Source of the DNA: a virus
Reading direction: 5' to 3' (one strand)
Length of the DNA: 64,000 nt
Virus record (IMG/VR): IMGVR_UViG_3300045812_000062
The position numbers were made by a program, and so were the translations under genes. Each line of letters begins with the position of its first letter. Positions within the stretch are counted from its first letter, which is position 1. The notes under the pieces were generated by a model. It was not told the DNA's origin, did no database searches, and saw nothing but the letters and a program-made list of their open reading frames with translations. Positions 905-60,882 of the stretch are shown here, piece by piece.

Positions 905-1678
905 TTATGGATCTACTCCTTCTATACTTACATAAGTTGCACGCGCATTTCTTAGATGGCTTCCTAGAATATAGAATTCATGTCCAGCGGCAGGATTGTA
1001 AACTGTTTCATCATATTCTGACAAAGACACACCAAATAATTGCCCAGCTTTCGCAAATGGCTTAAGAGCCTTCGCTGCATTTATAATTTTTTTATCTACA
1101 GACTTCAGGTGCGCGACAAGCAGATTTAGCTGGATTGCATCATCGCTTTTGCCTGCATCTTCCATCCCCATTGCCAAGCTACGAACCCAACTTTCCCAAT
1201 CGATATCCCTCTCGAACTGGATAATGGATTTATAACACTGCTTGTAGAAGCCAACGGCTATCTCTATGTTATCGCGAGCAGATTTATCTGAATGAGTTGA
1301 TATCAAGTCACTGAGGTTTGAAATCGCATTATGACTGGATGCATGCTTCCCAAGTTCCAGCAAATTTCTCATGTGACCGATATTAACAAGCACGAATTCA
1401 TTATCCGATTTGTACTTAATGGCCTCAAAAATGTTCAATGATGCGAACAAGATATCGAATGGATATAAATCTTCCTCACACTCGTTTTCAACTAGATTTT
1501 CCTGATCACATTCATATCCGTATATGGGTTCCCATCTGATTTTGTCAGCGTACTCTTGCGTGTAACCTAGATCAGGTTTTTCCATAGAATAGATCGTCTT
1601 CCATTCATCTGAAACAGTTGATTTCCATCGCCAACCAACTTGAACCAAACCCACTGCAGGTTTCGTGTTTTCATTCAT
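905..1678 (-). CDS. hypothetical phage-like protein
   Basis: Long ORF; likely start MNENTKP at 1678 overlaps the stop of 1671-2339. Confidence 0.65.
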   Translation of the reverse strand: MNENTKPAVGLVQVGWRWKSTVSDEWKTIYSMEKPDLGYTQEYADKIRWEPIYGYECDQENLVENECEEDLYPFDILFASLNIFEAIKYKSDNEFVLVNIGHMRNLLELGKHASSHNAISNLSDLISTHSDKSARDNIEIAVGFYKQCYKSIIQFERDIDWESWVRSLAMGMEDAGKSDDAIQLNLLVAHLKSVDKKIINAAKALKPFAKAGQLFGVSLSEYDETVYNPAAGHEFYILGSHLRNARATYVSIEGVDP

Positions 1679-2339
1679 TTTTGTTCCCCCGTGTAGAAAT
1701 ATTCTGCCCATCCACAAGCGCTTTGTTAATAGTCTCTTTGAGATTATTAAACACCTCAGACATAACATCAGCTACTTCACCACGAACAATATTACCGCTC
1801 GGCAAATATAGCGCTGCGCCATCCTCATCATCGCTGTCCAAAGAGCTCGCAATCAATTGTTGATAATCACGAAGGGTCTTAGCGTAAAATTCAGATCGTT
1901 TAATATATGTTCTGCAGTCCTTCAAAACTTCGATCATCTCTGATTGATGTGAGATTGACTCATTTTCAAGCTTAGCTACCAACGTTTGGAGCCGCTCGAA
2001 TTCTTCTTTGGAGCCACCAATCTTACGACAAGAGGCCACGGTTGCAACCTGACGCAACAGTCCAACGCTGATCTCGATGGCCTCGGTATCTTCCTTGTCT
2101 TTATTGGCTTCGAGGAGTGTATGAACGACTTCGACGGAATCAACGAGATTCCGCTTTGCGACATCTTCATTAATATCGTACACGGCCTCGATTTCGATCT
2201 TCATGCCCTGTGTTGTTGCATGATCGACGATGTGTGTTGGCTTTTCTGGTTTATTCCAGAGCTTCCAGAAGCTATCCCCGGACACCTTATAAATCCACCC
2301 AACGATTTTGAGAATATGCGGAGTATTAATAGCGGTCAA
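1671..2339 (-). CDS. hypothetical protein (coiled coil)
   Basis: 222-aa ORF with RBS-like AAGGGG upstream. Confidence 0.65.
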   Translation of the reverse strand: MTAINTPHILKIVGWIYKVSGDSFWKLWNKPEKPTHIVDHATTQGMKIEIEAVYDINEDVAKRNLVDSVEVVHTLLEANKDKEDTEAIEISVGLLRQVATVASCRKIGGSKEEFERLQTLVAKLENESISHQSEMIEVLKDCRTYIKRSEFYAKTLRDYQQLIASSLDSDDEDGAALYLPSGNIVRGEVADVMSEVFNNLKETINKALVDGQNISTRGNKNE

Positions 2340-2413
2340 CGGTTGCTTCCCCTTTTATTTAAATAACTATGGTTGAGCTATTTAAATTTTCAACTACGAT
2401 TTATGTTTAAATA

Positions 2414-2878
2414 TTATTTTTCCTTACAGGAATTTTGAATATCCTTCAATGCGAAATTTCGCTTTTCTCCTGTCTCTGTATCGATACCTACCAAAAACCA
2501 CTGTGGTTCCGGATGCCATTCATTGGAGCCATAATCATATCCAATCGGGCGAACATGACGTTCACGTGTTTCTCCTCGCCAGTTCTTATAAATAAAGCGA
2601 ATATCTGGCGCTGTGGCCACTTCACTTGATGGAATATGGACGCCAAGCGCATCTGCAATTTCCCCAACAGCTTCAAATTCCATACGACGCCATTCAATGG
2701 GGTTTAATCCGATCCGCTGCTGGCCAGCTTGTTCAATGCGAGCGCTCGCATGTGAAAATTTTGCGCGGGCTTTATTTAATGGCGATTCTGATCGCAGTAA
2801 TTCCATTACTTCGTGGTCATCTAATTTATTGGTCACATTTACTGCCTTTTTTATTCCAGTGTGCATATATAAAGTCAC
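2414..2878 (-). CDS. WYL-domain protein
   Basis: C-terminal IRFIYKNWRGETRERHVRP...QWFLVGIDTETGEKRNFALKDI matches the WYL pattern. Confidence 0.75.
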   Translation of the reverse strand: MTLYMHTGIKKAVNVTNKLDDHEVMELLRSESPLNKARAKFSHASARIEQAGQQRIGLNPIEWRRMEFEAVGEIADALGVHIPSSEVATAPDIRFIYKNWRGETRERHVRPIGYDYGSNEWHPEPQWFLVGIDTETGEKRNFALKDIQNSCKEK

Positions 2879-3298
2879 GACAAAAAGCCTAATGTCCAGC
2901 GCAATTCCACATTATGTATCCGCTATTGATTTGATCAGATGCATCATTGATGAGTTTGATAGCGCGAATCCTGGTGTCGACTGTCGATACACCGCAAGAT
3001 GTCGGATAACCAAAAGATCAATAATCGTATTGCCTTACACGCAGATTTACATTGTCTCTTTCATTTTTGATCGATTCATGCTCTTTATGAACTGCGTTGA
3101 ACACTGCCCCGTTCTTCGTATAGACGGCCTCCCACCCCCGCTTTCTGGAGGCCGTCTTTTCATTTTATTATCCAGTTAATTGTATTCATCCGGCTAGGTG
3201 GCGTCTTATTTATTGACTTTTTATTTGTGAACTGCAAAAAGGAAATTAATAATTAAAGTGTGGCTCGATGCGCTTTGATTTCTAGAAAAGGTTTCATC

Positions 3299-3811
3299 AT
3301 GACAAATAGAATTGTATTCGACGGTGAATTGGAACCTGGCATGTTTCCAGATTCAGATATCGTTTTTGTTTCCGGTGCTGATTGCAATTACCGCTCAATG
3401 TCTCGTCAGAATATTGGTGATGTTGTTGTATTCGACGACAGCGATGCATCCGACCATCATAACGACAAACCAATTTCAGTTGATCCTCACGAGATGCAAA
3501 TCATTATTAATCACGATGAAGAAACTGAGAAAAATGTCAACGATTTTAATGCGATGTTACGACGTGAAAGCGATGATCGTGAGCGGCGCAGAAACAGTGG
3601 TTTAAACGCTGCTGCATTGGCAACGCTCGTGGCTTCGTTGTCTGTTTCATCACATCGGGGCCATGAACCCTACAGATGGAGGCAAAAATCCATCTACAAA
3701 CCGACAGAGCCGGATCACGAAGCACATTTGAGTGCGGCCGAGATCAAGCGAAAGCGGAAATCTGAAAAACTACGGAAGATTGCAGACAGAACACAAGGGA
3801 AGGGCGCTTAA
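3299..3811 (+). CDS. hypothetical protein
   Basis: ORF starting MTNRIV, first of a tightly packed plus-strand run. Confidence 0.6.
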   Translation: MTNRIVFDGELEPGMFPDSDIVFVSGADCNYRSMSRQNIGDVVVFDDSDASDHHNDKPISVDPHEMQIIINHDEETEKNVNDFNAMLRRESDDRERRRNSGLNAAALATLVASLSVSSHRGHEPYRWRQKSIYKPTEPDHEAHLSAAEIKRKRKSEKLRKIADRTQGKGA

Positions 3812-3812
3812 C

Positions 3813-4514
3813 ATGACTGACACATTGAAATCAAAGATGCTGGCACCTGTGGACATCTACAAAGTTCTCAAGTCTGCACATGACAACGGTCGTCTGGAAG
3901 ACAACCTTGCTCAGATCGCCCGTGAAATCGCACGGCTTGATCCTGCCTATGTTGCTTTCGCTGCCCGTAATGATGCGAAGACCCTGAAGGAAATGGTCGA
4001 AGAAGCATGTACGTTCGGAGTATCCGAGCAACCTGCCGATATCGCAACCAGCGGCGTTGAAATCCGCAAACTGGAGTGGGTTCTTGAAAACGAATTTTGG
4101 AAATGTACGACACACACTGATTATAACATTGAATGCTGGTGGGAGGTGGATGTCATCAAGACGCCGCGTGATTACAATGATCCTCATTACTTCGTGATCA
4201 ATGATGACGACGATGAGCGTTATGAAACTATCGAAGAGGCTATGGATGCCGCTCAAACGATTTACGAGACTGTGGCAAATTCGTATTTCATTACACGACT
4301 ACCAGCTCAATCCGACGACGAAAAGTTCAAAGCGGGCCGCAAAAAGGGTCTGGTTGAAGGCGCAAAAATTGCTGGAGATTTCGTCTATAACCTATACGAC
4401 AATGATGGTGTTGTAACGAGCCATGATTATGAAAAGGTTAGGGACCAAATTCTGCAACAGATCGAGCAATCGACGCATGAGGATACGGAAGATGCCGCGC
4501 CTTCGCCGCGATAA
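3813..4514 (+). CDS. hypothetical phage-like protein with acidic/Pro C-terminal tail
   Basis: ATG 1 nt after upstream stop; ends EDTEDAAPSPR. Confidence 0.7.
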   Translation: MTDTLKSKMLAPVDIYKVLKSAHDNGRLEDNLAQIAREIARLDPAYVAFAARNDAKTLKEMVEEACTFGVSEQPADIATSGVEIRKLEWVLENEFWKCTTHTDYNIECWWEVDVIKTPRDYNDPHYFVINDDDDERYETIEEAMDAAQTIYETVANSYFITRLPAQSDDEKFKAGRKKGLVEGAKIAGDFVYNLYDNDGVVTSHDYEKVRDQILQQIEQSTHEDTEDAAPSPR

Positions 4515-4875
4515 GATTACGTACGAGCAGGCCCGAGCTGACCACGATTACCTGTGGCAGACCTACGGGCCTGCTTATGATATGACAGGCGCATATGATG
4601 AAGATCGCGACATGGAAATGCTGTTGCGTAACCCCTCCAAGAAAACTGCGATTGACTGTTACTGCAGTCGTATTCGGTACTGGATGGAGGTCGGACCTCA
4701 AGTGAATTCTTCGACTGGCGAAATTTCTGGAGGCGATATCGACTGGCTCGATTTCAAGGTGATCGATATTGCCGTCCGTCATGGTTTTATTTCTGAAGAA
4801 GATTCCATGGATGCGGATTTTCTCACCGATCTTTATCAACGCAAAAGCACTCTGCTCAGGAACAAAAAGGATTGA
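4423..4875 (+). CDS. hypothetical protein (true start probably downstream of 4423)
   Basis: Fills gap between coupled ORFs; start uncertain. Confidence 0.6.
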   Translation: MIMKRLGTKFCNRSSNRRMRIRKMPRLRRDKITYEQARADHDYLWQTYGPAYDMTGAYDEDRDMEMLLRNPSKKTAIDCYCSRIRYWMEVGPQVNSSTGEISGGDIDWLDFKVIDIAVRHGFISEEDSMDADFLTDLYQRKSTLLRNKKD

Positions 4876-4877
4876 TT

Positions 4878-5264
4878 ATGTCTTATAAAATCGAAAAGGC
4901 CAAAAAAGAATTGCGATCCGCTCTTAAAGACGCTGGCGTACATGGTCCTGGTGGCAAAATCCTCAACGCGGTCAATAAAGTAGTTGAAGCTCACCTGGAA
5001 GGCTATTTAAGGGCTGAAGATGTCGATGCTGCGCTCGCAGATAAAAATGCTGAAATCTCTCGTCTAAAGACGCGTTTGTATGCGCTTGAATTTCTTGAAC
5101 CACTTAACGATGATCAAGAAGAATTCTTAAATAAAATTCGGCCTCTGAATGAAATCATCGACGCGCTTTACGAGCATCGCATTGATGCTAAAACCGCAGA
5201 TGAAATGTGCCGAGCGCTACACCCGTCAGATCAAACAGAAACTTTAACGACGGGGTTTAAATAA
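4878..5264 (+). CDS. hypothetical protein carrying NKIRPLNEIIDALY motif shared with 42182-43876
   Basis: AAGGA RBS; 20/26 aa identity to a segment of the 564-aa coiled-coil protein. Confidence 0.75.
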   Translation: MSYKIEKAKKELRSALKDAGVHGPGGKILNAVNKVVEAHLEGYLRAEDVDAALADKNAEISRLKTRLYALEFLEPLNDDQEEFLNKIRPLNEIIDALYEHRIDAKTADEMCRALHPSDQTETLTTGFK

Positions 5265-5265
5265 T

Positions 5266-6393
5266 ATGAAAGAACTCGAACCTAACACCGATGAAACTGA
5301 AGCCAAGGCAGCAGCGCAGTACGACTACGGGAAGCGCATCGATTCCAATTCTTGTGATGAGAGACTGCCTGGTCTAGAACTGCTCAAATCTATCAAGGAG
5401 TGGAGCCGATTGCATGATCTAAATGAATCCGTGATCGCGCAAAAAGGAACTCCAAGCGACAGCGAAATCGACTTCGAAGTTGAGGCATGGACAAGGATTA
5501 AGAACCTGACTTCTGACATCGATGTGGCTATTGCCGCCAAGGTCGCGGAAGCCAAATCCGATCTAAAATCCCGCTTTGTCGCGCTCTGTAAAGATTACGC
5601 CGAAGATGCAGAACCTGCGACCTCATATCGACAGGCAATGGAAGATTTGATTGATGCACTGGAAAACGGCGATGAAAATCTGATGCAGCCAGAACCATTC
5701 GAGGCACTATTCGTCGAGAACGACCTGGTAGCCGAACTTGCAGAGTTCTTATTCCAATCTGAATACCAGGACGATGCGAAAAAACTGGCCTATCCTAAGA
5801 AGCATTTTGAACGCATGGCAACCGAAGTTTTGGCCTATTTCAAAGATAACAATCCAGATGCAGACGCTTATCGGGAAAAGTTCCTGATTGCTGACGAGCG
5901 AGCTGTTAAATGGCGGGATCACTTTCAGTCGTTAAAGATGCTGGGACATGATGCAGCAACAAAAATGAACATTGATGACTGCAAGGTGTATCATGTCTAT
6001 GATCCGAATTTTACAGGAAATGGAATTGTAGTCAGCCACACCAACCTATTGAAAGCTATCGAGGATGCCCGAGACATCCTTGATGACTATCGTAAAGATG
6101 CCGTCAATGAAGGTGAGTGGCCCAACGAAGTAGAAGACATCAAAGTCATTTTGGCAGCATCTGCAAACGATTGTGAAGACGCTGGAGTTGTCGTTGCGAA
6201 GGCAACGGCACTCTCTGATCACAATGACGATGCCGAATATTTCATCACATTGACTGACGACGCATTCAATCAAGAACCGAATGAAATCAATACGTATCTC
6301 ATCGCAAAACACCTACAGCTAGCATGCTTTGATGAATCTAAAGCCAGCTTTACGGCTGAGGTGCTTTCGCGCACAGGTTTTGGATTGATTTGA
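5266..6393 (+). CDS. hypothetical phage-like protein
   Basis: 375-aa ORF, coupled to upstream gene. Confidence 0.7.
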   Translation: MKELEPNTDETEAKAAAQYDYGKRIDSNSCDERLPGLELLKSIKEWSRLHDLNESVIAQKGTPSDSEIDFEVEAWTRIKNLTSDIDVAIAAKVAEAKSDLKSRFVALCKDYAEDAEPATSYRQAMEDLIDALENGDENLMQPEPFEALFVENDLVAELAEFLFQSEYQDDAKKLAYPKKHFERMATEVLAYFKDNNPDADAYREKFLIADERAVKWRDHFQSLKMLGHDAATKMNIDDCKVYHVYDPNFTGNGIVVSHTNLLKAIEDARDILDDYRKDAVNEGEWPNEVEDIKVILAASANDCEDAGVVVAKATALSDHNDDAEYFITLTDDAFNQEPNEINTYLIAKHLQLACFDESKASFTAEVLSRTGFGLI

Positions 6394-6487
6394 GCCTACG
6401 TATTAGAAAGTATGGGTCTACTTGAAACTCAAATAGGCCCAACCTTACTACCAGCAAACACCAACCACAATCTAAAGTTTTAGCCTG

Positions 6488-6517
6488 TTGACACCACCTA
6501 CCGTTCACGAGTATCGT
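6488..6517 (+). promoter_or_regulatory. putative sigma70 promoter
   Basis: TTGACA-N18-TATCGT upstream of ORF at 6548. Confidence 0.45.
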
Positions 6518-6547
6518 TCCCGTCCACAAAAGGGTTGGGGACATTCG

Positions 6548-6808
6548 ATGAAGCTCACGGTAACAAACGTTGTGCTAACTGATGGACTTATAAAACACGG
6601 ACAACAGCTAAGCGGCCAAGCTACTTTTTCAGACGGAAAGCATTATGATTTCATAATTGGACCGAGAAATATTTACATCCGTTTTGTCGTTTTCACTCAT
6701 AAAAATGGCGAATGGCATTCCAAAGGGTTTCATTCTTCAAAAAGGGAATATCCATTACTGGAATGGCTCAAATGCAATGAAGAGATCGATACAAGAATGC
6801 GAGCATAA
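6548..6808 (+). CDS. hypothetical protein
   Basis: ATG with GGGA RBS downstream of putative promoter; 86 aa. Confidence 0.55.
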   Translation: MKLTVTNVVLTDGLIKHGQQLSGQATFSDGKHYDFIIGPRNIYIRFVVFTHKNGEWHSKGFHSSKREYPLLEWLKCNEEIDTRMRA

Positions 6809-6830
6809 TCATATCGATCTCGTATCATTA

Positions 6831-7247
6831 TTAATCGTCGCGATAAACCTTTTCACGACGCTCATGGCGTTCCTGTGCTTCTATGGAAAGCGTTGCGATG
6901 GGACGCGCATCCAGTCTTCTTACACTGATTGGATCGCCAGTTTCTTCGCAGAATCCGTATGTTCCATCTTCAATGCGCGCAAGTGCATCATCAATTTTGG
7001 CAATCAGTTTTCTTTGCCTGTCACGTGCACGCAGTTCGATTGCCCTGTCAGCTTCAGATGATGCACGATCTGCTACGTCTGGCTGATGGATATTACTTTC
7101 CTGCAGAATTTCTAACGTGTCTCTCGCTTCACGCAGAATCTCATTTTTCCACGTTATCAGTTTTGTACGAAAGTAAGCCTGCTGCCGCTCATTCATGAAC
7201 GGCTCCTCGTCAGTAGGCTTGTAAGCCCCATCGTTCAATTCACTCAT
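6831..7247 (-). CDS. dksA: RNA polymerase-binding transcription factor DksA (alphaproteobacterial, zinc-free type)
   Basis: EEPFMNERQQAYFR N-terminus, DxxDxA tip (DVADRASSE), GTYGFCEETGDPI..RRL.ARPIATLSIEAQE; GAGG RBS. Confidence 0.95.
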   Translation of the reverse strand: MSELNDGAYKPTDEEPFMNERQQAYFRTKLITWKNEILREARDTLEILQESNIHQPDVADRASSEADRAIELRARDRQRKLIAKIDDALARIEDGTYGFCEETGDPISVRRLDARPIATLSIEAQERHERREKVYRDD

Positions 7248-7273
7248 TCAAAATCCTCAGTGATTGGCGATAC

Positions 7274-7309
7274 GGGCGGGTCTATAGACAGATCCCACTT
7301 GAAATACAA
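7274..7309 (-). promoter_or_regulatory. putative dksA promoter with GC-rich discriminator
   Basis: Minus strand TTGTAT-N17-TATAGA followed by CCCGCCC. Confidence 0.5.
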
Positions 7310-7361
7310 CCTAGAAAGCGCCTGTTGGTAATTTTGATATTAAGGCAAGATTTGCAATTTG

Positions 7362-7928
7362 TATCTATGCCGCCTGTTCGGCGGTAAACTATCACGATGA
7401 TACGTAAACCGACTACCCAGTATTCAGAGCCGCCTATGCGGCGGTAAACGTGACTATTGCAGGGTCTCAAACGCGCTGCAAATTCAGAGCCGCCTGTGCG
7501 GCGGTAAACGTATCCTGTTTGTCGATGAATTTGACAGTGCTATTCAGAGCCGCCAGAAGGCGGTAAACGAAACGAGAGATACCTATCTCGTTGGTGTGAT
7601 ATTCAGAGCCGCCTGTGCGGCGGTAAACTTACCTGGTCCTGCCTGGTCGTCGTTTTTTTTATTCAGAGCCGCCTGTGCGGCGGTAAACTCAATACCCTCC
7701 ATTTCTCTGCATGCTGTAGAATTCAGAGCCGCCTGTGCGGCGGTAAACGATATCTGATCAATGTGCGGGACTGCGCACCTATTCAGAGCCGCCTGTGCGG
7801 CGGTAAACGGAATTTGGGATTTGAATGACAACGACGAATAATTCAGAGCCGCCTGTGCGGCGGTAAACATGCCGACCGGGCATTTCAGTCTCGATATGCT
7901 ATTCAGAGCCGCCTGTGCGGCGGTAAAC
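7362..7928 (-). CRISPR. type I-F-like CRISPR array, 10 repeats / 9 spacers, no cas genes in window
   Basis: 28-bp repeat GTTTACCGCCGCACAGGCGGCTCTGAAT (minus strand) at 7422, 7482, 7601, 7661, 7721, 7781, 7841, 7901; 27-bp variant at 7542; degenerate terminal repeat at 7362; all spacers 32 bp; 5-bp hairpin CCGCC/GGCGG as in I-F repeats. Confidence 0.97.
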
Positions 7929-10485: not shown

Positions 10486-11847
10486 TTAGCTAGATTTGCT
10501 TACCGCATTCAGAGAAGGCGAGCAGAATTTCACTCTCATCAATTCAACAGCCTGCTCAAACTTCTTCTCTGAATCTCTAACCGCTTGATATGGAGTCATA
10601 TAATCCAATTCTGGATTAGGCATCAATTTCCAAGTATTAACTCTTCTATTTCGGAATTTTCTAGCTTCACTATTAAACCATTTCATTCTTTGATCAACCC
10701 GGTCCTCATGTCTTTCTTCCGCTTCCCGTCTCATTCTTTTAGCAGTCTCTAAAGCTTCTTTTTTAGCCCTTTCAGCGATCTCAAATGCCTCTCTTTTAGC
10801 TCTTTCAGCGGCCACTATTGCTGCGCTTCTAGCGTTTTCGGCAGCCTCCTGTATAGCTCTTTTGGTTCGTTCAGCAGCTTCAAGCTTCTTCTTCGCAGCA
10901 TCTATTTTATTCATGAATGCTTCGTAAATCGGCAAGCCCATCATGTCATCTGGAATTTTTGGTAATTCTTGTGAGTATTTTGAATTTAAATTGCTAACCC
11001 CCAACCATAAATAGTTATACCAAGTCGAGCCATTATTTAAAAAACTAATAACATCCAATCCATGTAATGTTGCTCTTTCATTTATCCACCTTTCAAAATC
11101 AAAGCTCTCAAACAACTCATTATCAATACGAGTTAAAAACGTTTGAACCAGAACTTTTATTTCTGTCATTCTTTTTTCCGCTAATTTATTCTCCAATTCA
11201 CGAGACATCTCATCATATTTGCGATTCCACAACCATTCGCGTGGGGCATCATGCAAAATCAAATTTTCAATATTCTTGACCTTTTTATCCTTGAACGCAG
11301 CGAGATTTATTTCTATGGTGGATATACCAATATCCTTCAAATACGAAATTTTTTGATCATCACAGAAGTGCGTCACCGCGAATTCAACGAAGAATCGAGT
11401 TCCTCTGTGTTCACAGATGACGTCTGGAATTATCCTCCCGACTCTCTTTTCCAAAGAGACGCAGTCGACATCAATATCAAAAGCTGGTGACTTTATCACT
11501 TTAAATTCACCCCGCTTTAAAGAAACCTCAGGAAGTGAAATTTTCCTTCTTTTTTCTATGACGGCCTTTGCCAATTTATGAAGTGCAGTTTCTCCAGGAG
11601 AATAACAGTCTCTGTCTCTCGCATTTGCCTCATGGGCGAAGTGATAAATCTGCTTCTTTGCTTTCCCTTTCTTGGCGATCAACCTCTCCCCGCATTCGGG
11701 ACAAACACAAGCGCACGACAAACCGCGATCCACTTCTGATATATGAACGATTTCGCCACCATTAACTTTTTCTCCGAAAAATATCCTGCCTCCTTCATGT
11801 TTTTTAAAGAAGTCTCCAATCAAGAAATCGTCACGGTCGCATTCCAT
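10486..11847 (-). CDS. CoiA-like zinc-finger/PD-(D/E)xK nuclease with coiled coil and C-terminal MbcA/ParS-like segment
   Basis: CVCPECGERLIAKKG...HFAH...GETALHKLAK, IIPDV...VEFAVTH; C-terminal WKLMPNPELDYMTP. Confidence 0.65.
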   Translation of the reverse strand: MECDRDDFLIGDFFKKHEGGRIFFGEKVNGGEIVHISEVDRGLSCACVCPECGERLIAKKGKAKKQIYHFAHEANARDRDCYSPGETALHKLAKAVIEKRRKISLPEVSLKRGEFKVIKSPAFDIDVDCVSLEKRVGRIIPDVICEHRGTRFFVEFAVTHFCDDQKISYLKDIGISTIEINLAAFKDKKVKNIENLILHDAPREWLWNRKYDEMSRELENKLAEKRMTEIKVLVQTFLTRIDNELFESFDFERWINERATLHGLDVISFLNNGSTWYNYLWLGVSNLNSKYSQELPKIPDDMMGLPIYEAFMNKIDAAKKKLEAAERTKRAIQEAAENARSAAIVAAERAKREAFEIAERAKKEALETAKRMRREAEERHEDRVDQRMKWFNSEARKFRNRRVNTWKLMPNPELDYMTPYQAVRDSEKKFEQAVELMRVKFCSPSLNAVSKSS

Positions 11848-22331: not shown

Positions 22332-22696
22332 CATCCATTTTATCAACACATGGCAGCAATTAAACAAGTGAGGCATTTTATGAGTGTGGAGAACGATTTT
22401 CACAGTGAGTTTGGCACTTGTAGTTCTGCCAAGTTTGCCACTCTAAGTGTTAAACAGCACATTAAACGAATATTTTTATGTGTGGTTATTATAGCGACCT
22501 CAATTGTCTACCTGAGTATGACCTCTGTATTGAATCTATTTTCTAACGGTTCAATACATGAGGTAATTATCGTATTTCACTCCCTCCTTACATTTTTTGT
22601 ATTATTATTGATTTCAGTTTCCATATGCCGTCTGTTTCAGTCATTGAAATCACTAGCTTCTATTCATTTCCAGTCAGATCAAAACCGGAGTTCATA

Positions 22697-24220
22697 ATGA
22701 ATAATTTGGCCGATCTTCGTTTGAAGCCTTGTCCATTTTGCGGCCGCGAAGCTGTCAAAATGCGTGGAAACAAAGAACACGAATGGCAATTCGTGTGCGC
22801 GGATTATTATGATGATGTTCCGGAATGCAGTTCACAACCGATGACGCATATCTACGACATCGTCCATGAAGCGGTAAAAGAATGGAACACGCGCTTTAAT
22901 GATCGTCCTCATGGCAAGCTCGTGGGCTATCTGACGTCAACATCCGAGGACGGTCAAGACAATCGGTTCTGCGCCCTTAAAGATTATGATCAAGATATTC
23001 ACGCGACCGAATTCACTATTCCTGTCTATGCGGACGCGGTTGCGGATTTGTCTCCATATCCTGCCATGCCGATTGCCTATCGTTGGCTTTCGAAACCGGA
23101 TCAGTCAGATGACATCTGGAGTTATACAAATGCGGATAAAGAGCCGTCATTTACTCCAGAGTTCAAGAATGAACACAAGTTTCAGGCGGTGTATGCCGAG
23201 GAATTACGGACGCATTGCAGCGATCTGCTAAAGCGGCTTGCAACATCTGACTGGGCCTACGAAGCACAGCATCTGCAGCTGAAGGCCGCCGAAAACGAGA
23301 TTGCCGACTACAAGAAGCGTATTGCCACCCTTGAAGCCGAGGTTAAGGCCTATAAGGCAACAGGCGTCATCCCTGCTAATCCAGCCAAGGATGATGGTTC
23401 TGTTCCTGTCATCGATTATAAGCTTAAGCCCAAGGATTGCCCATGGTGTTACTCAACGCCTAAGGTGACAGCACCTGATCACGTTAATTACAAAGTGGTT
23501 TGCAGCGCGCAATCTAACGATGAACATTGCATCTGCTCACCTGAGACCGCACCTCATTACTCCAAGGAAGCTGCAATTGCTGACTGGAACCGAACCATTG
23601 ATCAAAAAGTCATCGACGGCTTCACGCGTGGCGAAATCGCGGAAGTCCTAAGACCTTTTGCGTCGTTCGCCGGATGGAACGTTGATGACGATGGTTGGAC
23701 AGACACCAATCAGAGGCAACCGATCACTACCTGGTTTGGTCCTAGCGATTTCCGAGCAATTATGAAACTCGCAATCGCACTTAAGGATTTTAATCCAAAC
23801 ATGGCATATCGCGACTCCGATCTTCTTACTGAGATTGGAATTTTAAAGCGTGAAATAGAAAAACTGGAAAAGAATGACTTGTTTACGCGGGAATGGCACG
23901 CAGTTCGCCTACGTAAAATCGAAGAAATCGCCAAGCGTGAGAATTTATGGGATGAAATTGCAGCAGTAATTGCTAACGGTCAATCCACACGAACGCTACC
24001 AGATGGAACGCATTTCATTGATCCAGACAATTTCGGATTAATGTTGAATTCGGCAAAATTTCGAGCGGACGCAGCCAGCCAAAGGGCGGATCGTTACAAG
24101 ATTGCACTCAAAATCATTAAACGGGTAGCAGGACAGGGATCAACGACGCCATCTTCGATTATTCATCAGGTGATTGATGCTGTTGAATATGAGGAAGCCA
24201 GTTGGGAGCGATTAAGTTAG
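22697..24220 (+). CDS. mosaic phage protein with two Lar-like (restriction alleviation) zinc ribbons
   Basis: LKPCPFCG...VCAD...AVKEWNTR and KPKDCPWC...VVCS...AAIADWNR; GGAG RBS. Confidence 0.7.
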   Translation: MNNLADLRLKPCPFCGREAVKMRGNKEHEWQFVCADYYDDVPECSSQPMTHIYDIVHEAVKEWNTRFNDRPHGKLVGYLTSTSEDGQDNRFCALKDYDQDIHATEFTIPVYADAVADLSPYPAMPIAYRWLSKPDQSDDIWSYTNADKEPSFTPEFKNEHKFQAVYAEELRTHCSDLLKRLATSDWAYEAQHLQLKAAENEIADYKKRIATLEAEVKAYKATGVIPANPAKDDGSVPVIDYKLKPKDCPWCYSTPKVTAPDHVNYKVVCSAQSNDEHCICSPETAPHYSKEAAIADWNRTIDQKVIDGFTRGEIAEVLRPFASFAGWNVDDDGWTDTNQRQPITTWFGPSDFRAIMKLAIALKDFNPNMAYRDSDLLTEIGILKREIEKLEKNDLFTREWHAVRLRKIEEIAKRENLWDEIAAVIANGQSTRTLPDGTHFIDPDNFGLMLNSAKFRADAASQRADRYKIALKIIKRVAGQGSTTPSSIIHQVIDAVEYEEASWERLS

Positions 24221-42181: not shown

Positions 42182-43876
42182 ATGAGTGATGCAGCCAGCC
42201 TGAAACTATCGGCAACAAAGAATGAAACGCCATCGGAGCGCGTGCGCTATCGTAGCCGCACTACGACCGAAGAAGGCCCTCTGGCCAATATTCAGGAAAA
42301 TACGTTCTACAAAATTATTTTCAATCCTGAATTCAGCCCTGAGCAAAAGATGGAATCAGCGGCCAAGGCGCTGGAATTCACTGAGAATAAAGAAGAAAAC
42401 CGCACACGCCTAAAGGAATTCGACTCCTTTAAGGAATATATGAATGCGGTTTCCGAAAAGATGTCGAAGGATCGCATCAAGCTTACCGACACTGAGGTTT
42501 TTGCTGAACTTCAGAAGAACTACGGCGATCTCCAAATTGATCTTGAGGATTTTTTCAACAAAATCCGTCCACTGAATGAAATTATCGATGCGCTTTATAA
42601 GCTTCGTGTCGACGGCAAAACGCGTGCAGTTCTTGATCAGATCCGTGAAGATCAGGAATGGGAAGCCAATATCCTGGTTCAGAAGGAAGATCTTAGCAAC
42701 AAGATCAACGGGATCGTTAATTCGATTCGCCAGACTGAAGCGTCCATCAAGGATCTTGAAGTCAACAACGTTGCACTAGCTCAGGATAAGGGATTTTTCG
42801 GGTACGGCCAAATCAAGGCTGCTTCGATGACACAGATCAAGGTCAACGAAAAGCTGATGGAAGATCGCCGTCAGGAAATCGTGAAGCTACAGGAGAGCGT
42901 CGAAGTTTTCCGTGGAGATCTTAACAAGCTCGATAGCGACATCTCAGAGCGCATGAGCAACCGCCCTGACTCGTTTGAAATCGGCAAGCTTCGTGAACTT
43001 CTCGACCTGACCAGTGATCAGCATACTCAGCGGCAGGCTGACATGGTTGCTGCGGCGCTGAAGTTCGTCGAATCCGGTAAAGAGCGTTTTGGTTCTATTC
43101 GCAATTCTTTGGACAAAATGGTTACGCAGATCGACGGTCTTGGTGACAACAATACCAGCATGATCCAGATCACGGCCGTTCTTAACGAAGCGACCAAAGT
43201 TGCAGAAACGTCGAACCAGAAGAAGCGTGAAGAATATTCAAAGATTCCGGATGACGCAAATCTGATTGAAAAGATGCGCCTTCAAACGCTTCAGCAGGAT
43301 ATCGAAGAGCATATCGATGTTCTTAATACGGCAGCTGTTGATACGATGCAGTCGTATGGCGAACTGACAACCGAAGCGATCAAGATTCGTAACATGCAGG
43401 CGGCCACTAAGAAGCAGGTCGAGTCCGCTCGGACGATGCATTCTCGCGGCATTGCAAGTGTTGCAAGTCAGCTGAGTACGGTACTGACAGCAGTTAATGC
43501 TGCTGGCATTACTGAAGCTCATGCGATGGCAGCTAATACGCTCAACGAAATGACCCGTGTGACCAATGAAATCGCTCAGAAGGAAGCAATTCGTATTGCG
43601 ACCTCTCGCGATGATGTGAATAGCGATCTTGAAGCTCTGCTGAAGACCCTTGAAGATTTCGGCGACACTCAGCGTGAAGCAACCGACATCACTCGTGGGG
43701 CGCTTTCCGACATTCGTCATAACATGGCTGCACTTGAAGGTCTGTCGCGCGACGTTCAGGACGAAACCCGTGAATTCGTGGGTGTCGCGGCCGATGTCGT
43801 TGGCAACGATAAATCAAAGGTCGAAAAGCCTAAGAATACGGGCGCTGCTTCGCCATTCAACATTTCGGGGGTATAA
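42182..43876 (+). CDS. all-helical coiled-coil protein, C-terminal half TelA (toxic anion resistance)-like
   Basis: AAGGG RBS; helical pattern of the C-terminal ~150 aa resembles TelA by eye; TAATG coupling to the ATPase. Confidence 0.6.
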   Translation: MSDAASLKLSATKNETPSERVRYRSRTTTEEGPLANIQENTFYKIIFNPEFSPEQKMESAAKALEFTENKEENRTRLKEFDSFKEYMNAVSEKMSKDRIKLTDTEVFAELQKNYGDLQIDLEDFFNKIRPLNEIIDALYKLRVDGKTRAVLDQIREDQEWEANILVQKEDLSNKINGIVNSIRQTEASIKDLEVNNVALAQDKGFFGYGQIKAASMTQIKVNEKLMEDRRQEIVKLQESVEVFRGDLNKLDSDISERMSNRPDSFEIGKLRELLDLTSDQHTQRQADMVAAALKFVESGKERFGSIRNSLDKMVTQIDGLGDNNTSMIQITAVLNEATKVAETSNQKKREEYSKIPDDANLIEKMRLQTLQQDIEEHIDVLNTAAVDTMQSYGELTTEAIKIRNMQAATKKQVESARTMHSRGIASVASQLSTVLTAVNAAGITEAHAMAANTLNEMTRVTNEIAQKEAIRIATSRDDVNSDLEALLKTLEDFGDTQREATDITRGALSDIRHNMAALEGLSRDVQDETREFVGVAADVVGNDKSKVEKPKNTGAASPFNISGV

Positions 43877-46002
43877 TGAAACATACAGTTCGCGGCAGTG
43901 AATATCTGGCCGACTTCACGAACTTCAAGCTGAAGGGGCGTGATGCCGATCTCGAACGCATCTCGTCTATCCTGATGCGAAAGACGTCGAACTCTCTCCT
44001 GCTGGTAGGTCCAGCAGGAGTAGGGACGTCTGCACTTATGCTTGGTCTTCAGGCCTCCAAGAATGATCCGGAAGCTCCATTCGACATCGTGTCCAAGCGA
44101 TTGTTCTGGCTTGACACCGATTCACTTTTTGCAAGTGGTGACGGCGCTGAAATCAATTCAGATTTCCAGAAGATTCTGCGCCAGCTGGAAGCGACACCTG
44201 AATCTGTCTTGATTATCGAGAACACATTCAACTTCATCGAAGCAGCGCGCAACACGGGCAATCCGCACTTTATCAATGCGCTCAATCTGCTCGTCCGCAA
44301 AGACAAGACCCAGGTTATCCTTGAGGTTCGCGACGAACAGCTTACACAGGTTCTCAAGTGGCATTCCGACGTCGCAGAAGCATACACGCTTTACGATGTT
44401 CAGGAACCAGTTGGCGCAATCCTGCAGGAAATCGTCTACGAAGTCTCTATCGGTTTGGCTGATTTCCATAAGGTCCAAATCGATGATAGCGCAGTTCTTG
44501 AGGCCATCAGACTGACGAGCAAGTATCGTGACAGCCTGGGTCTCGGCGGCGCACAACCTGCACGAGCTATTTCATTGCTCGACAGGGCGCTTTCAAGCTA
44601 TCGGCAGCAAGCTCATCGCAAGCATCCTATCCTTGTAAAGCTGGAACTCGATATCCAGAACGAAACCGACAAGGCAAAGGTACTCGAACTACAGAGCAAA
44701 CACCTTCAGATCACAAAGGATTGGGACGCCCTCCAGACCGAAATTCGCAAGACGTACAAGTCTCAACGCGATGGCGAAGAACTTTTGTTCAAGCTACATG
44801 ACGATCTGGAAGCCGCACGCAAAAAGAAGCAGCCAGAACCTGAGTTTGCGGTAGCTCCTCAGTCCTTTGCGGAAATTGCTGGATCAGGATTGGAATCGCC
44901 TGAAGCCGCTAAGATCAATACGAACATTCGTGCTATCGAAGCGGAAGTTGCCGCAAATCGTGATCGTCACAATGAGCTGGTTTTGATTGCAAACCGCGAT
45001 CTGCTACTCGACAGCAGAGCCGTTGTTTCCGAGTTTAGCAAGATTTCCGGCATCGCAGCTGATAAGCTTGATGCCAATGAAATGGAAAACCTGCGTAACC
45101 TTGAAGCAAATCTGCTTTCTCGTATTTATGGTCAGGATGACGCAGTTAAGCACATCGCCAACTCGATCAAGGTTGCGAAGGTCGATGACCTTAATGAAGC
45201 TGGTCCAGCCGCAAGTTACCTGCTCCTAGGTCCTTCTGGTGTGGGCAAGACCGAAATTGCAAAGGCTCTTGCGCAGTATGTAGGTGGTGATGAATCGGCC
45301 CTTGAGCGCTTTGATATGTCCGAATACATGGAGAAGCATGCAGCGGCAAAGCTCATTGGCGCACCTCCCGGATATGAAGGTTTTGAAGCTGGCGGTATCC
45401 TGACAAACAAGGTCCGAAAGAAGCCTGTAGGCATCTACCTGTTCGATGAAATCGAAAAGGCGCATCCTGATGTTTTCAATATCTTCCTTCAGATTTTGTC
45501 TGATGGTCGTCTGACTGATAATATCGGACGAACGGTAGATTTCAGCGAAGTCATTATCATTATGACCTCGAATATCGGTCAGCCATTCTATCTGGACGTC
45601 AATCTCACCGACGAACAGGCTCAGACCTATGCGACCGAAGAGCTGAATAAAACCTACCGTTCCGAGCTACTAAACCGCTTTAACGGTCGCGAAAACATTC
45701 TGCACTTCAAGCGTCTCGGAATTGATAATATTCAGAAAATTATCAAGCGTGAAATTACCAAGCTTAACAAATCTTATGAAAAGCGCGGTTTGGTAATCAA
45801 CATTTCCGACGAGTCCATTAGGCAGTTCTGTGAATGCCATTATGATCCGACAAGAGGCGCTCGTGGCCTTCCTGGTTACATCAAGGCTAACTTGCGTCCG
45901 ATTATCGTAAACCACATTCTGGAAAACCCGGAACAGGTTGGCGTATTCGAGGTGGCGTTTAACAGCGAAACCAGGAATTTCGTAGTCGAATTCAAGGACT
46001 AA
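43876..46002 (+). CDS. ClpB-like AAA+ ATPase with degenerate NBD1 and intact NBD2
   Basis: NBD1 GPAGVGTS / IIENTF; NBD2 GPSGVGKTE, RFDMSEYME, KLIGAPPGYEG, LFDEIEKAHPDVFNIFLQILSDGRLTD; no N-domain. Confidence 0.9.
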   Translation: MKHTVRGSEYLADFTNFKLKGRDADLERISSILMRKTSNSLLLVGPAGVGTSALMLGLQASKNDPEAPFDIVSKRLFWLDTDSLFASGDGAEINSDFQKILRQLEATPESVLIIENTFNFIEAARNTGNPHFINALNLLVRKDKTQVILEVRDEQLTQVLKWHSDVAEAYTLYDVQEPVGAILQEIVYEVSIGLADFHKVQIDDSAVLEAIRLTSKYRDSLGLGGAQPARAISLLDRALSSYRQQAHRKHPILVKLELDIQNETDKAKVLELQSKHLQITKDWDALQTEIRKTYKSQRDGEELLFKLHDDLEAARKKKQPEPEFAVAPQSFAEIAGSGLESPEAAKINTNIRAIEAEVAANRDRHNELVLIANRDLLLDSRAVVSEFSKISGIAADKLDANEMENLRNLEANLLSRIYGQDDAVKHIANSIKVAKVDDLNEAGPAASYLLLGPSGVGKTEIAKALAQYVGGDESALERFDMSEYMEKHAAAKLIGAPPGYEGFEAGGILTNKVRKKPVGIYLFDEIEKAHPDVFNIFLQILSDGRLTDNIGRTVDFSEVIIIMTSNIGQPFYLDVNLTDEQAQTYATEELNKTYRSELLNRFNGRENILHFKRLGIDNIQKIIKREITKLNKSYEKRGLVINISDESIRQFCECHYDPTRGARGLPGYIKANLRPIIVNHILENPEQVGVFEVAFNSETRNFVVEFKD

Positions 46003-46064: not shown

Positions 46065-46685
46065 ATGGAAGATATCAAAAAGTTCTTATCGAACAGTCGG
46101 TTTATTATCCAGTTTCTGGCTGGATTGCACTTTGTGTGGGATCGCGTCCTCGGACCTCCGCGCCGTATTCTCCTTAAAGTTCTCGGACGTTTTTTCAATT
46201 GGTATAAGGCCACTTGGAACCGCTATACATATGATAAATATGGTGGCTTCGTTTATAAGAGGGCAGGGATCATGACCACGGCAACGCTGGCGGTTCTCAT
46301 CATGATCCCAACATTTATCAGCCTATCATTTAATGCTGCTTTATTTTTCACGACATATCGCAGCGAACGGGTATATCTTTTCAATTCTGAAGAGATTTAT
46401 CCCGATGATAATATTTGGTCCATTCGTGGGTGCGAAATGGTGAACTGTGCTACAGAAAGCCTCTATTTCCGAGTGGCTCCATCACTTTTCAATCAAATCT
46501 GGAGTGTAATCTACAATCGGGAATTGTTCCTTGCTGACGACATTGCATCAGGCGTCCCTCCCGGCAAGACTGAATGTCATATTATTTCATACGGTGTCCG
46601 CATTAAGACCCTTATGAAGCGGTACGAAATTTACCCAGATGCTCTCTATATTGCCTGTGATGGCAAGAGACTTATGGACAATTAG
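46065..46685 (+). CDS. membrane protein, third gene of the operon (weak DUF1523 resemblance)
   Basis: GAGGA RBS; TM GIMTTATLAVLIMIPTFISLSF; C-terminal SYGVRIK...IYPDA. Confidence 0.65.
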   Translation: MEDIKKFLSNSRFIIQFLAGLHFVWDRVLGPPRRILLKVLGRFFNWYKATWNRYTYDKYGGFVYKRAGIMTTATLAVLIMIPTFISLSFNAALFFTTYRSERVYLFNSEEIYPDDNIWSIRGCEMVNCATESLYFRVAPSLFNQIWSVIYNRELFLADDIASGVPPGKTECHIISYGVRIKTLMKRYEIYPDALYIACDGKRLMDN

Positions 46686-56792: not shown

Positions 56793-59700
56793 CTAGAACT
56801 TCACATTCAAGCTAGCATTGAAGCCATTCTGCGTAGTTCCGTTGCCATACTGCCCAACGTAACTCACACCAAATGTCGAGGCTTCAGTGATTGCCATATC
56901 GAACCCAACCTCTACGAGAGCGGCGTCCTTGGCAATCGGGGTTCCTTCCACTGTAAAGGCACTTCCTCCTGCAAAGAACTGTGAGGATTCCGGCGTGATA
57001 TCACCATAGGCGTGACGCCAGCCGAGAGTTCCCTTCAAGTTAGCCTTGGTTGCTCCGAACTGAAAAGGGGCCGAGGCGCGCAATCCGAGTGTTGTGAATG
57101 TTGTGCTAGTCGTTTCGCTATCGACAGACAGAGCTGCCGCTCCACCTTGTTCAGTGAAACCATCGGTGTGCAAACGAACGTGCGAGAGGTTGGCAAATGG
57201 CTCGAACGCAGCCACAGATGTATCAATGCGATATCCCAACTCACCGAAGGCCTGGAAGGTACGGGCATCGTAATCAGCAGCAAGGCTGTCGCTGAAGCCT
57301 GAGTAGGAAACAGATCGCGAAGAGTCGATGCTGTGCCAAGTATGGACGAGACCTGCACGCAGTCCAATTGGCCCCCACTGGTTACCGCCATAGATGCCCA
57401 GATGCCAATTGTCGCTCGTTGCCGAAGCATAACGTCCCTTGGCATCGAGATCGGTCTGGCTGTAACCACCGACAACGCCGAGACGCCATCCAGAGGCAAA
57501 TCCTACATCTACGCCGGACAAGAAGCCGCCAGTTGAAGTTTTCAGGCCACCTGCATTCGAGTTGCCGTCGTGATCAACCCAAGAACCGAAACCTGAGGCC
57601 CAGACGCCGTAATCATATGAAGCAGGCGCAACGGCTTCGAACGGTTGCGGTGCACTGCCTTTCGGTGACTGAGCGAACGACAGGACAGGGGCGTCCTTCG
57701 CAGCCACGCCTTCGAAGGCAGAACGTAAGCGATTGTTGATCGCATCCGCAGTCAAATTTGCTGTATCGATCAGGCCTGTCTTTACCGATGCATGCGTATC
57801 GCCTGACAGTTGGTTAAAGGCTTCCCGTGCTTCGTCTTCATTCGTCAGGAAGAGAACCGAGTTATACAGTTCTAGCGACGATCCGCTCTGTTCCAGGCCA
57901 TCCAATGCGCGAGCAGTTGCCACTTGATTGGTTGTCTGTGCAACCTTCTCGAAGACAACAGGCGGGGTTTCCGGATCAACTGGGTCAATTGGGTCTGCAA
58001 CCAGACCAACGGTCAAATCCACTTGGTTTGCCTGATAGCCAAGGGATGTTGTCAGGAAAACAGATTTGGATACAGCTTCATCGAACTGGCCATCAACGCC
58101 TCCGCCTGCGGTCAGGATCGTATAAGTCTGGCCGTCCTGATAGCTGACCTTAGTATCCAATGCATATACGTCAACACGGCCACCATTCAGGATTGCCTTG
58201 CCTGCGGCGTCGATACGGTCACTGGTCCCATCGCCTGCAACTTCAACCTCGTAAACGGAGCCAGCACCAAATGTAACGTCCCCTGCGACGGTCATTGTGC
58301 CAATGGAATTCCCAGGTCGTAGCGTTCCATTGGCGGTCAGATTACCACCAATGTTCCAATTTCCACCCATAAAGGACGTCTGATCAACAGCAACGCTTCC
58401 GCCAACAATAATTGGCGCTCCGATAGCACCACCGCGCGTAACGGAACCGTTGTTCAATTCAACATCGCCGCCAATTGTCGCTCCGGTTGCATGGAAAGTC
58501 AGCTGAGTTCCCGTGCCTACGACGTTTCCTTCTATTTCTGTCCCTTCAGCAAACGAAAGTTGTGTACCTGCTTCTGTGTTCAGATTGGTAATGCCGGAAA
58601 TTTTTCCATTGAATTTGGCATTCTCTTCAATCTTAACGTGGGTAGCTCCCGATCCTTTTTCGTCAAGATCCACAATGTCGCCGCTGGATTCTGAACCTGC
58701 CTTCAACGTCAGGTTCATCACACCGTCTTCGCCTTCGCCCGTACGGTTAACCTGGACCAACACACCGTTGTTCGCTGTTGCGACTGTTCCAGCGCCAAAC
58801 GAAACGTTTGCGATGTCGTCAGAAGCAGAGAGGCCGACAAGGATCGATGGACCCTGAACACTCTTAAGAACGGTGCCATCAACGGCAATAGTGCCGCTTC
58901 CATTAATCTCCAAAGCCGCAGCGTCAAGACCATTCGCAGTGACCGAACCACCTGTGAAATTTACCGCACCGCCATCTTTGACGAAAACACCAGAAGCGAA
59001 TTTTCCGTTTGTGACAACATTGGTGTTCGTTGCGTTGATAACGCCCGCGTCAGCACCTCTGTCATTGTTGGCAATCAATCCATAGCCATCTGCGCCAGTC
59101 GTGACGATTTCAGAGTCGGCAAGATCGATTGTGGAATATGACTCGGCAAATGCACCAAAACCATTCACGCCAGAAGTCGAAACTGAAACAGTTCCGGCAA
59201 TCTTACCGCCGTCAATTGCATGAAGACCAAAGGCATCGTTGCCGGATGTGACAACATTGGAACCCTCGTTCAACGTTATGACTGAATGATCTGTGCCGTC
59301 CGCAGTATTTCCGTTAGCACCAGCTTGAACGCCATGCGCCTTCGATCCTGATGTAGTAACCTGACTACTAGAAGTCAGCGTAGAATTCTTGGCTGCTAAC
59401 AGACCGAACGAGCGATCTCCGCTTGTATCTATGTTGCCGCCATTTAACTCGATATCGCCACCATTATCAGCGAATGCGCCATACGCCCAATCGCCAATAG
59501 TCACGATTTCTGTGTCAGTGGTTACGATTTTTCCGCCCTGCGAATTGCGGTCGTTGTTCGCAACGAGGGCATGACCACTCACGCCTGTCGTGGAAATCCT
59601 GCCACCAGTCTGACTGATTTCAGAGAAAGACTCAGCGAACGCGCCAAAGCCGTTCTTTCCAGCTGTATTAATGTCAGCCGAGCTGTTGATAATGCCGCCG

Positions 59701-60632: not shown

Positions 60633-60882
60633 CTTAACCCCAAGCAAAATCTATTACCTGAGAGTTACTAACATAAGACATAAACAAGCAGCGCCAAGGT
60701 TCACAATAAACCCCAGTGTAAAAATATCTACTTGGTCTGATTACGCCCCACGCCACTAAACTCCCAATACCCGGAGACACGCATAACCGGTACAAAACGA
60801 TTCTGCAACCTGTGAGGGCACGATATGCGGCGGCCGCGTTAATTCGTTGCACAATTGCAACAAATATGAGGATGAGGCGAAC

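Follow-up and report, generated by a model that had tools for sequence, protein, structure and literature searches.

Probable capture of a helix-coding segment of a coiled-coil gene by a small modular gene within one lineage of mobile elements

We describe a small gene containing a segment very probably captured, at the DNA level, from a larger gene, rather than acquired by convergence; this relationship is new here. Both genes lie on the same strand of the DNA analyzed, a 64,000-nucleotide stretch from IMG/VR virus record IMGVR_UViG_3300045812_000062 (hereafter referred to as the window), and the two copies of the segment (hereafter referred to as the motif) are 37.4 kb apart (Table 1). The larger gene (hereafter referred to as the big gene) is the first of a cassette of three genes, the second of which encodes a ClpB-like ATPase. 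As for function, we tentatively propose, giving the idea slightly less than even weight, that the small protein mimics helix 120-144 of the big protein, engaging the packing surface of this helix in the big protein itself or in a partner.

Table 1. Coordinates in the window of the genes and segments discussed in the text
Feature	Coordinates	Strand	Description
WYL gene	2414-2878	-	
Upstream gene	4423..4875	+	Conserved; start codon uncertain; homologues called at 128 aa
Small gene	4878..5264	+	128 aa; mosaic of four parts: N-module, residues ~1-45; coiled-coil, 46-73; probable captured helix, 76-106; short ancestral tail, 107-128
Segment probably captured	5103..5195	+	31 codons, L76-T106; 26-residue core 5118-5195
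Downstream gene	5266..6393	+	375 aa; varies between elements
CoiA_N gene	10486-11847	-	
Lar gene	22625-24220	+	531 aa
Big gene	42182..43876	+	564 aa, all-helical; first cassette gene; member of the probable segment-donor family
Donor-type segment in the big gene	42530..42622	+	Residues 117-147
ATPase gene	43876..46002	+	ClpB-like AAA+, 708 aa; start overlaps the stop of the big gene
Third cassette gene	46065..46685	+	206 aa; no family match
Autotransporter gene	56793-60647	-	1283 aa

An earlier note on this DNA had drawn attention to the shared peptide; its letters and positions and both open reading frames were confirmed here, the core starting at E81 of the small protein (position 5118) and E122 of the big protein (position 42545). 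The BLASTP alignment of small-protein residues 76-106 with big-protein residues 117-147 has 22/31 identical positions (E 5e-12), with no other part aligning, and hhalign comparison of the two family profiles yielded 39 columns only (small 73-111 against big 115-153; probability 96%). The limitation of the profile alignment to these columns implies that the remainder of the two proteins is unrelated, as the note had held. The homology of the small protein does not run along the length of the big family through its conserved blocks (residues 80-147, 269-345 and 377-535), and the small protein therefore carries a fragment of this family rather than being a member of it. When all 588 open frames of the window were compared with one another, this alone emerged as a fragment common to otherwise unrelated proteins (E 2.7e-9). 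Nor is the motif a widespread free-standing domain, because it was seen only in the big-protein family and in one subclade of the small-protein family. Similarity persists at the DNA level, with 66/93 nt identical between the small gene and the big gene of the window.

The small ORF is preceded, 7 nt upstream, by the ribosome-binding site AAGGA (4866-4870); its ATG comes after the stop codon of the upstream gene and its own stop codon lies 1 nt before the next ATG. The exact small protein was present on 147 contigs and the exact big protein on 140 (the longest listed for each being 1,002,252 bp), and the small gene is conserved in related elements, with a dN/dS of ~0.27. Searches of Pfam, PHROGs, PADLOC and NCBIfam gave zero matches for the small protein, and its AF2 model is all-helical, with low confidence (pLDDT 62). 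Eight distinct members of its family were identified. The motif is present in three of them, those of the window, P0003 (69% identical to the window protein) and P0004 (67%); the earlier note had named its usual absence from homologues as a point against a dedicated role, and this was partly borne out, as the other five members lack it. One of these five is the orthologue (126 aa; L019:1498-1875:-; ~50% identical to the window protein) from a genome named by its source as Mesorhizobium sp. SP-1A (hereafter referred to as G001), which came from a direct search of that genome only. The syntenic element of G001 has a G+C content of 51%, a low value for the genus named, versus 44% in the window. 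No relative was retrieved from alignments of the small family against genome and metagenome contigs, and a profile search covering 1.84 billion representatives yielded just P0126, P0128 and P0130 in addition, with P0133 coming from a further search. These four proteins match through their first 45-85 residues (the profile matches of P0126, P0128 and P0130 spanning positions 1-84 and 1-47), and their tails differ. P0126 (L021:10001-10576), P0130 (L023:10001-10501), P0128 and P0133 recombine, in varying combinations, three tail modules: RETDLxSKAIGGGSEVFM..., ELxNSIREIRRIANNDGVEIGTVGERVCERVEDVC and, in P0126, a hydrophobic C-terminus.

The first 45-60 residues are conserved throughout the small family, with the N-module consensus MSxxIEKAxKALxSALAHAGV. 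The surrounding gene order is also fixed: genes for proteins of ~170, 225 and 128 aa precede the small gene in L021, L023 and L024 alike, and the 128-aa gene precedes every family member, with or without the motif. Both the tail and the next gene vary at this fixed slot, for which at least four tail architectures were counted. The downstream gene encodes 377 aa in the P0003 elements and 274 aa in G001, with the N-terminal part in common; in motif-less elements it is replaced by a gene for 249 aa or by two for 64 and 345 aa. Judging from these sequences, the small-gene slot is a recombination hot spot, and the variation of tails at a fixed position suggests that it is the tail that sets specificity.

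The polarity of the exchange can be read from the G001 orthologue, which is syntenic with the window gene, lies 41 kb from the G001 big gene and has no motif. It is homologous from end to end, tail included, to the outgroup protein P0128 (BLASTP E 8e-21), and this homology of the two tails indicates that the motif-less tail is ancestral. The possibility that the G001 tail is a decayed motif was rejected, given its homology to the tails of P0128 and P0130. P0004, which is 61% identical to the G001 orthologue, has kept both ancestral flanks (LTDGISQIREE... and ...AEEQCRAL), and the middle alone is replaced by big-type sequence. The junctions are visible when the DNA of P0004 is aligned with that of the G001 orthologue and that of the big gene found in the P0004 sample, with GACGAnCTnGnA common to all three sequences at the left junction (microhomology, ~12 nt). 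The colinearity of the small loci of the window and G001 stops at 5086 and resumes at 5377, and window positions 5103-5179 match the G001 big gene (81% over 77 nt, E 1.8e-11); taken together, this break and this match indicate that the segment was copied as DNA. As the tail lacking it is ancestral and the segment is present family-wide in the big protein, the direction was from big to small. In this very probable event, ~87 nt of the element's own coiled-coil gene (residues ~118-147) replaced ~21 codons of the ancestral tail, in frame. The left breakpoint cuts inside the conserved block 80-147, off any domain edge, which fits an accidental junction. Longer tblastn matches of the big protein in P0004 (82 aa, 40%) and P0003 (77 aa, 35%) were rejected as coiled-coil spread, since identity outside the motif was at noise level and the hhalign alignment did not extend.

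The derived R, N and I of KIRPLNEIID are found both in the small copies and in a clade of big proteins that are 88% identical (window, P0006, P0007 and P0008), the next relatives, P0009 and P0010, having KIKPLTDITD. At the nucleotide level, the small copies match the P0006/7/8 branch at 70-73/93 positions, the window branch at 62-66/93, distant big genes at 44-52/93 and one another at 70-74/93. This pattern and the derived residues point to a single capture that preceded the divergence of the three motif-bearing genes, and the sequences point to the big gene of this element lineage as the probable donor. Values of pS were 0.41-0.91 between small and big copies and 0.51-0.71 between big orthologues, for which the whole-gene dS is ~0.9. 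By this estimate, made with synonymous sites near saturation, the age of the capture is comparable to that of the split of the elements.

The earlier note had based a claim of selection on a run of 14 codons with seven synonymous and no non-synonymous differences between the two window copies, and our recount agrees. Over all 31 codons, these copies differ by 15.5 synonymous differences at 19.3 sites and 11.5 non-synonymous differences at 73.7 sites (pS 0.80, saturated; pN 0.16; Fisher p 1.7e-7). In comparisons of small with big copies, pN/pS ranged from 0.12 to 0.44 (p 5e-8 to 0.04), and 18/31 residues do not vary among the small copies, those of the hydrophobic seam and a group of polar ones included; the peptide has thus been kept. 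The window copy keeps 12 of the 16 positions that are invariant or nearly so in the big family. Among the three small orthologues, pN/pS was 0.22, 0.50 and 0.74 for the motif, versus 0.36-0.38 for the rest of the protein. Retention at positions conserved in the big family (10/15) was not significantly higher than at big-variable positions (6/16; p 0.10), and L141 and the turn glycine G145, both invariant or nearly so in the big family, are replaced in every small copy. As the motif and the remainder of the small protein are equally constrained, the 7:0 run is the best stretch of an ordinarily constrained segment, rather than a sign of exceptional selection. The contention that the peptide and not the DNA is selected thus holds insofar as purifying selection has continued through synonymous saturation, but DNA similarity is still detectable; likewise, the suggested dN/dS comparison showed the peptide to be kept, but no more tightly than its surroundings.

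The big protein has more than 430 relatives with 50-88% identity, none with a Pfam domain, in Gilliamella, Orbus, Limnobaculum, Desulfovibrio-like, Plastoroseomonas and other genomes, and searches of Pfam, PHROGs, PADLOC and NCBIfam gave zero matches for it. Its AF2 model (pLDDT 71) consists of long helices throughout, with the shared segment inside predicted helix 105-144, of which it forms the C-terminal two thirds plus a G-x-T turn. Across 22 family members, the segment has a mean column identity of 0.81 and lies at the end of the conserved N-terminal block 80-147; the notion that it is the best-conserved part of the N-terminus was rejected, as it is merely the end of this block and ranks 186/534 among windows of the same length. 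A PDB search by sequence profile gave no credible match. For the big protein, Foldseek against PDB and AFDB clusters, together with the VIA-wide and Atlas shape searches, returned just generic helical-bundle rows, none rising above the noise expected of such bundles. These rows include ClyA, AhlC, IpaB and Vipp1/ESCRT-III hairpins, all of them below the noise bar (Z<=12.3, as for all PDB rows). Residues 201-212 form an invariant FFGxG tip between the long predicted helices 147-200 and 213-260, and a membrane-active hairpin in this region is a lead and nothing more. Two full-length paralogues of the big protein are present in each of two genomes from the order of the Limnobaculum parvum genome (G002), in tandem in G054 (C71:10489-13820) and at two places in G077 (C1); G032 and G274 contain broken remnants.

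The description of the big protein as TelA-like found no support in the sequence. TelA and the big protein are both all-helical, but Pfam TelA (PF05816) had no match to the window protein at E<=0.1, nor to any of 22 family members at E values up to 10. A feature score of 0.88 to an ESM Atlas cluster in which 54% of members have TelA is a weak lead, as is an Atlas shape match to TelA over residues 315-521 only (TM 0.22 by query, 0.46 by row). Both leads fall in the C-terminal half of the big protein, outside the motif region.

The ATPase matches Pfam AAA_2 (PF07724, 1e-53), ClpB_D2-small (PF10431, 9e-10) and AAA_lid_9 (PF17871, 9e-9), and remains under the equivalog cut-offs for ClpB (TIGR03346, 370 bits versus 1232), ClpA (365 versus 993) and ClpV (320 versus 885). 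It has generic matches to the ClpB-like PADLOC models DolB and PDC-M37B; the cassette is not a known defence system, and a literature search found no ClpB-like coiled-coil defence system. The ATPase gene directly follows the big gene in every locus examined, and is usually followed by a gene for 188-206 aa in close relatives and in Limnobaculum. The cassette stands by itself and its surroundings vary, with DarT and an IS element as neighbours in Limnobaculum, and Fic and an integrase in a deltaproteobacterium. The big protein has a full-length homologue in the jumbo Agrobacterium phage Atu_ph07 (543 aa, 33% identical, E 8e-91; L029:4797-8485, MF403008.1 355757-359445), the next gene there being annotated 'ClpB protein', and the cassette is thus not confined to cellular genomes and conjugative elements. 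A megablast search with the cassette against plasmids and phages retrieved nothing.

DotM_C is encoded upstream on related contigs. A 1.19-Mb contig of G001 has DotM_C at 388.8 kb, the small gene at 353.8 kb and the big gene at 312.7 kb, all on the same strand, which puts DotM_C 35 kb upstream of the small gene. This linkage identifies the element as a large integrative conjugative element with transfer genes of the Dot/Icm type (type IVB); no relaxase of family PF03432 was found on the G001 contig. Pfam assigns a Lar restriction-alleviation domain to a 531-aa protein of the window and also finds CoiA_N, WYL and a 1283-aa autotransporter there, and the L023 element likewise ends beside an autotransporter gene. 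The long co-directional run of small ORFs, the type IVB element and the Lar neighbour resemble the arrays of anti-defence genes in the leading region of conjugative plasmids (Nature 2024, PMC11541004), a likeness that is a lead only.

Co-occurrence of the motif with the cassette, a check proposed in the earlier note, was found in 3/3 known lineages with motif-bearing small genes, which for P0003 and P0004 means shared samples rather than shared contigs. The P0003 samples (SRR24432722 and SRR27834865) also carry cassettes with big proteins P0148 and P0149, identical to that of the window at 558/564 and 550/564 positions; the P0003 contigs end too early for the cassette to be reached on them. 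The P0004 sample (SRR32944838) also carries big protein P0008. In G001, by contrast, an intact cassette is accompanied by a small protein without the motif, and more than 400 cassette genomes, including that of the jumbo phage, have no motif-bearing small partner. No second, fragmentary copy of the big N-terminus was found in any short ORF of G001-G003 and 401 genomes of one order. Presence of the cassette without the motif in hundreds of genomes and one sister element implies that the small protein is an optional, lineage-specific extra, not a required partner.

The DNA of the window occurs in many 'ant metagenome' runs. Contigs from ant metatranscriptome libraries span 1603-7509, 3053-7689 and 2567-7026, with a word depth of 16-24 on these spans versus 0.3-10 for 400-1600, and 20 RNA libraries contain 0.6-1.0 of the words of the cassette. 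The uneven depth suggests RNA, although contigs cannot prove transcription. The metatranscriptome contigs over 1603-7689 break at a CRISPR-like array at ~7.5-7.9 kb.

On the mimic reading, the captured piece would be an amphipathic helix that retains its hydrophobic seam (F-I-L-I-L) and its polar face (N-K, E, D, R, D, T), having lost the glycine turn that joins it to the next helix of the big protein. Retention of the helix with loss of the linking turn suggests that the small protein presents the helix on a foreign scaffold. So presented, the helix would occupy its native packing surface, in the bundle or oligomer of the big protein or on the partner ATPase, and the outcome would be a modulator of the cassette similar to a microProtein, in the simplest case a competitor or a poison subunit. 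A functional link to the cassette is favoured chiefly by the resemblance of the tail to a specificity module, the presence of the donor on the same element, the retention of polar as well as hydrophobic residues and the co-occurrence of motif and cassette. Against it stand, above all, the absence of additional constraint, a breakpoint that looks accidental and the ability of both partners to manage without the motif. The structural models also weigh against mimicry, being moderate for the big protein (pLDDT 71) and poor for the small protein (pLDDT 62).

Two accounts of the similarity itself can be set aside. Both proteins are helical and rich in coiled-coil-like sequence, as would be expected if they had come to resemble each other by chance or by convergence on a common helical motif, but the homology at the DNA level (81% over 77 nt to the G001 big gene, E 1.8e-11) refutes this, and the pairwise E of 5e-12, the clade-specific residues shared by the copies and the clean junctions against the ancestral tail also speak against it, leaving it almost no probability. 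Equally little credence can be given to the idea that recent duplication or continuing gene conversion keeps the copies alike, with no selection acting on the peptide. The two copies do lie on the same element and on the same strand, but they have diverged at synonymous sites (pS 0.80 in the window), and the small copy is nearer to the big genes of other elements (70-73/93) than to its own (66/93). The alternatives to mimicry that deserve more weight concern what the captured segment does. It may be a filler helix with no functional link to the cassette, brought in by microhomology-mediated illegitimate exchange at a hot spot with a gene 37 kb away, and structurally standing in for the helix that it displaced. 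This is a serious possibility, if on balance an unlikely one: it would account for the four or more tail architectures at one slot, for a constraint on the motif equal to that on the rest of the small protein, for the breakpoint inside a conserved block, for the loss of the big-invariant L141 and G145 and for the ability of G001 to manage without the motif. A filler, however, should allow the polar and presumably exposed residues N-K, E, D, R, D and T to drift, and these are invariant; moreover, the segment has been retained past synonymous saturation in three lineages, its donor is on the same element and the cassette persists in every lineage with the motif.

Other readings keep the link to the cassette and change its sense. 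The ATPase or the 206-aa protein might use the helix as a handle for recognizing the big protein, in which case the small protein would recruit the machine rather than inhibit it. We consider this improbable, and the same applies to its two possible consequences, that the small protein is itself processed by the machine or that it brings the target of its N-module to it. Such a handle is favoured by the location of the segment, within the conserved block near the N-terminus of the big protein, and the ATPase has no Clp N-domain region matching known models and must identify its client by other means; the N-module, being conserved independently of the tail, also has a partner of its own. A heptad-like seam such as that of the predicted helix is, however, more typical of packing within a bundle. 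It is similarly doubtful that the whole small family consists of bait-carrying scaffolds, in which a constant N-module would dock onto an element-encoded partner and the exchangeable tail would copy or mimic the protein to be controlled. The bait would here be the helix stolen from the coiled-coil subunit of the cassette, which is itself mobile and found in variable islands beside DarT, Fic and IS elements, and the small protein could disarm the element's own cassette during transfer or related cassettes in recipients. If true, this would be a bacterial microProtein formed by sub-domain capture, and an anti-system factor derived from the system itself.

The case is a dated and polarized bacterial sub-domain capture, with donor, recipient, ancestral state and both junctions readable. 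If the helix does engage the cassette, it would provide a natural handle, as a specific inhibitor or adaptor, on a widespread uncharacterized cassette (a helical protein, a half-degenerate ClpB-like ATPase and a small third protein) present in chromosomes, integrative conjugative elements and a jumbo phage, and it would mean that mobile elements can build regulators by copying a helix of their target. Others might then be found by screening the small ORFs of an element for short pieces of the large proteins that it encodes. If the helix is a filler, the case is one of tidy but ordinary mosaicism.

In polymorphic toxin and colicin-type loci, a conserved N-terminal module is combined with exchangeable C-terminal modules and a variable downstream gene. 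The small-gene locus resembles them in its fixed slot, in the conservation of the first 45-60 residues, in the swapping of tails and in the variability of the next gene. It differs from them in having no recognizable toxin, immunity or secretion domain, and in that one of its tails was apparently copied from a gene of the same element, an unusual source for a module. MicroProteins, or small interfering peptides, are known from eukaryotes, for instance LITTLE ZIPPER, which acts against HD-ZIPIII, and Id, against bHLH. Unlike these, the small protein is not a truncated paralogue: it carries a single predicted helix of ~29 residues on an unrelated modular scaffold, and on a bacterial conjugative element. 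Like them, it is a small protein with a segment from a larger protein, the other parts of which are absent, and it could titrate its parent or the partners of the latter; its homology to the big protein is confined, in both DNA and protein, to that segment, which very probably derives from the larger protein.
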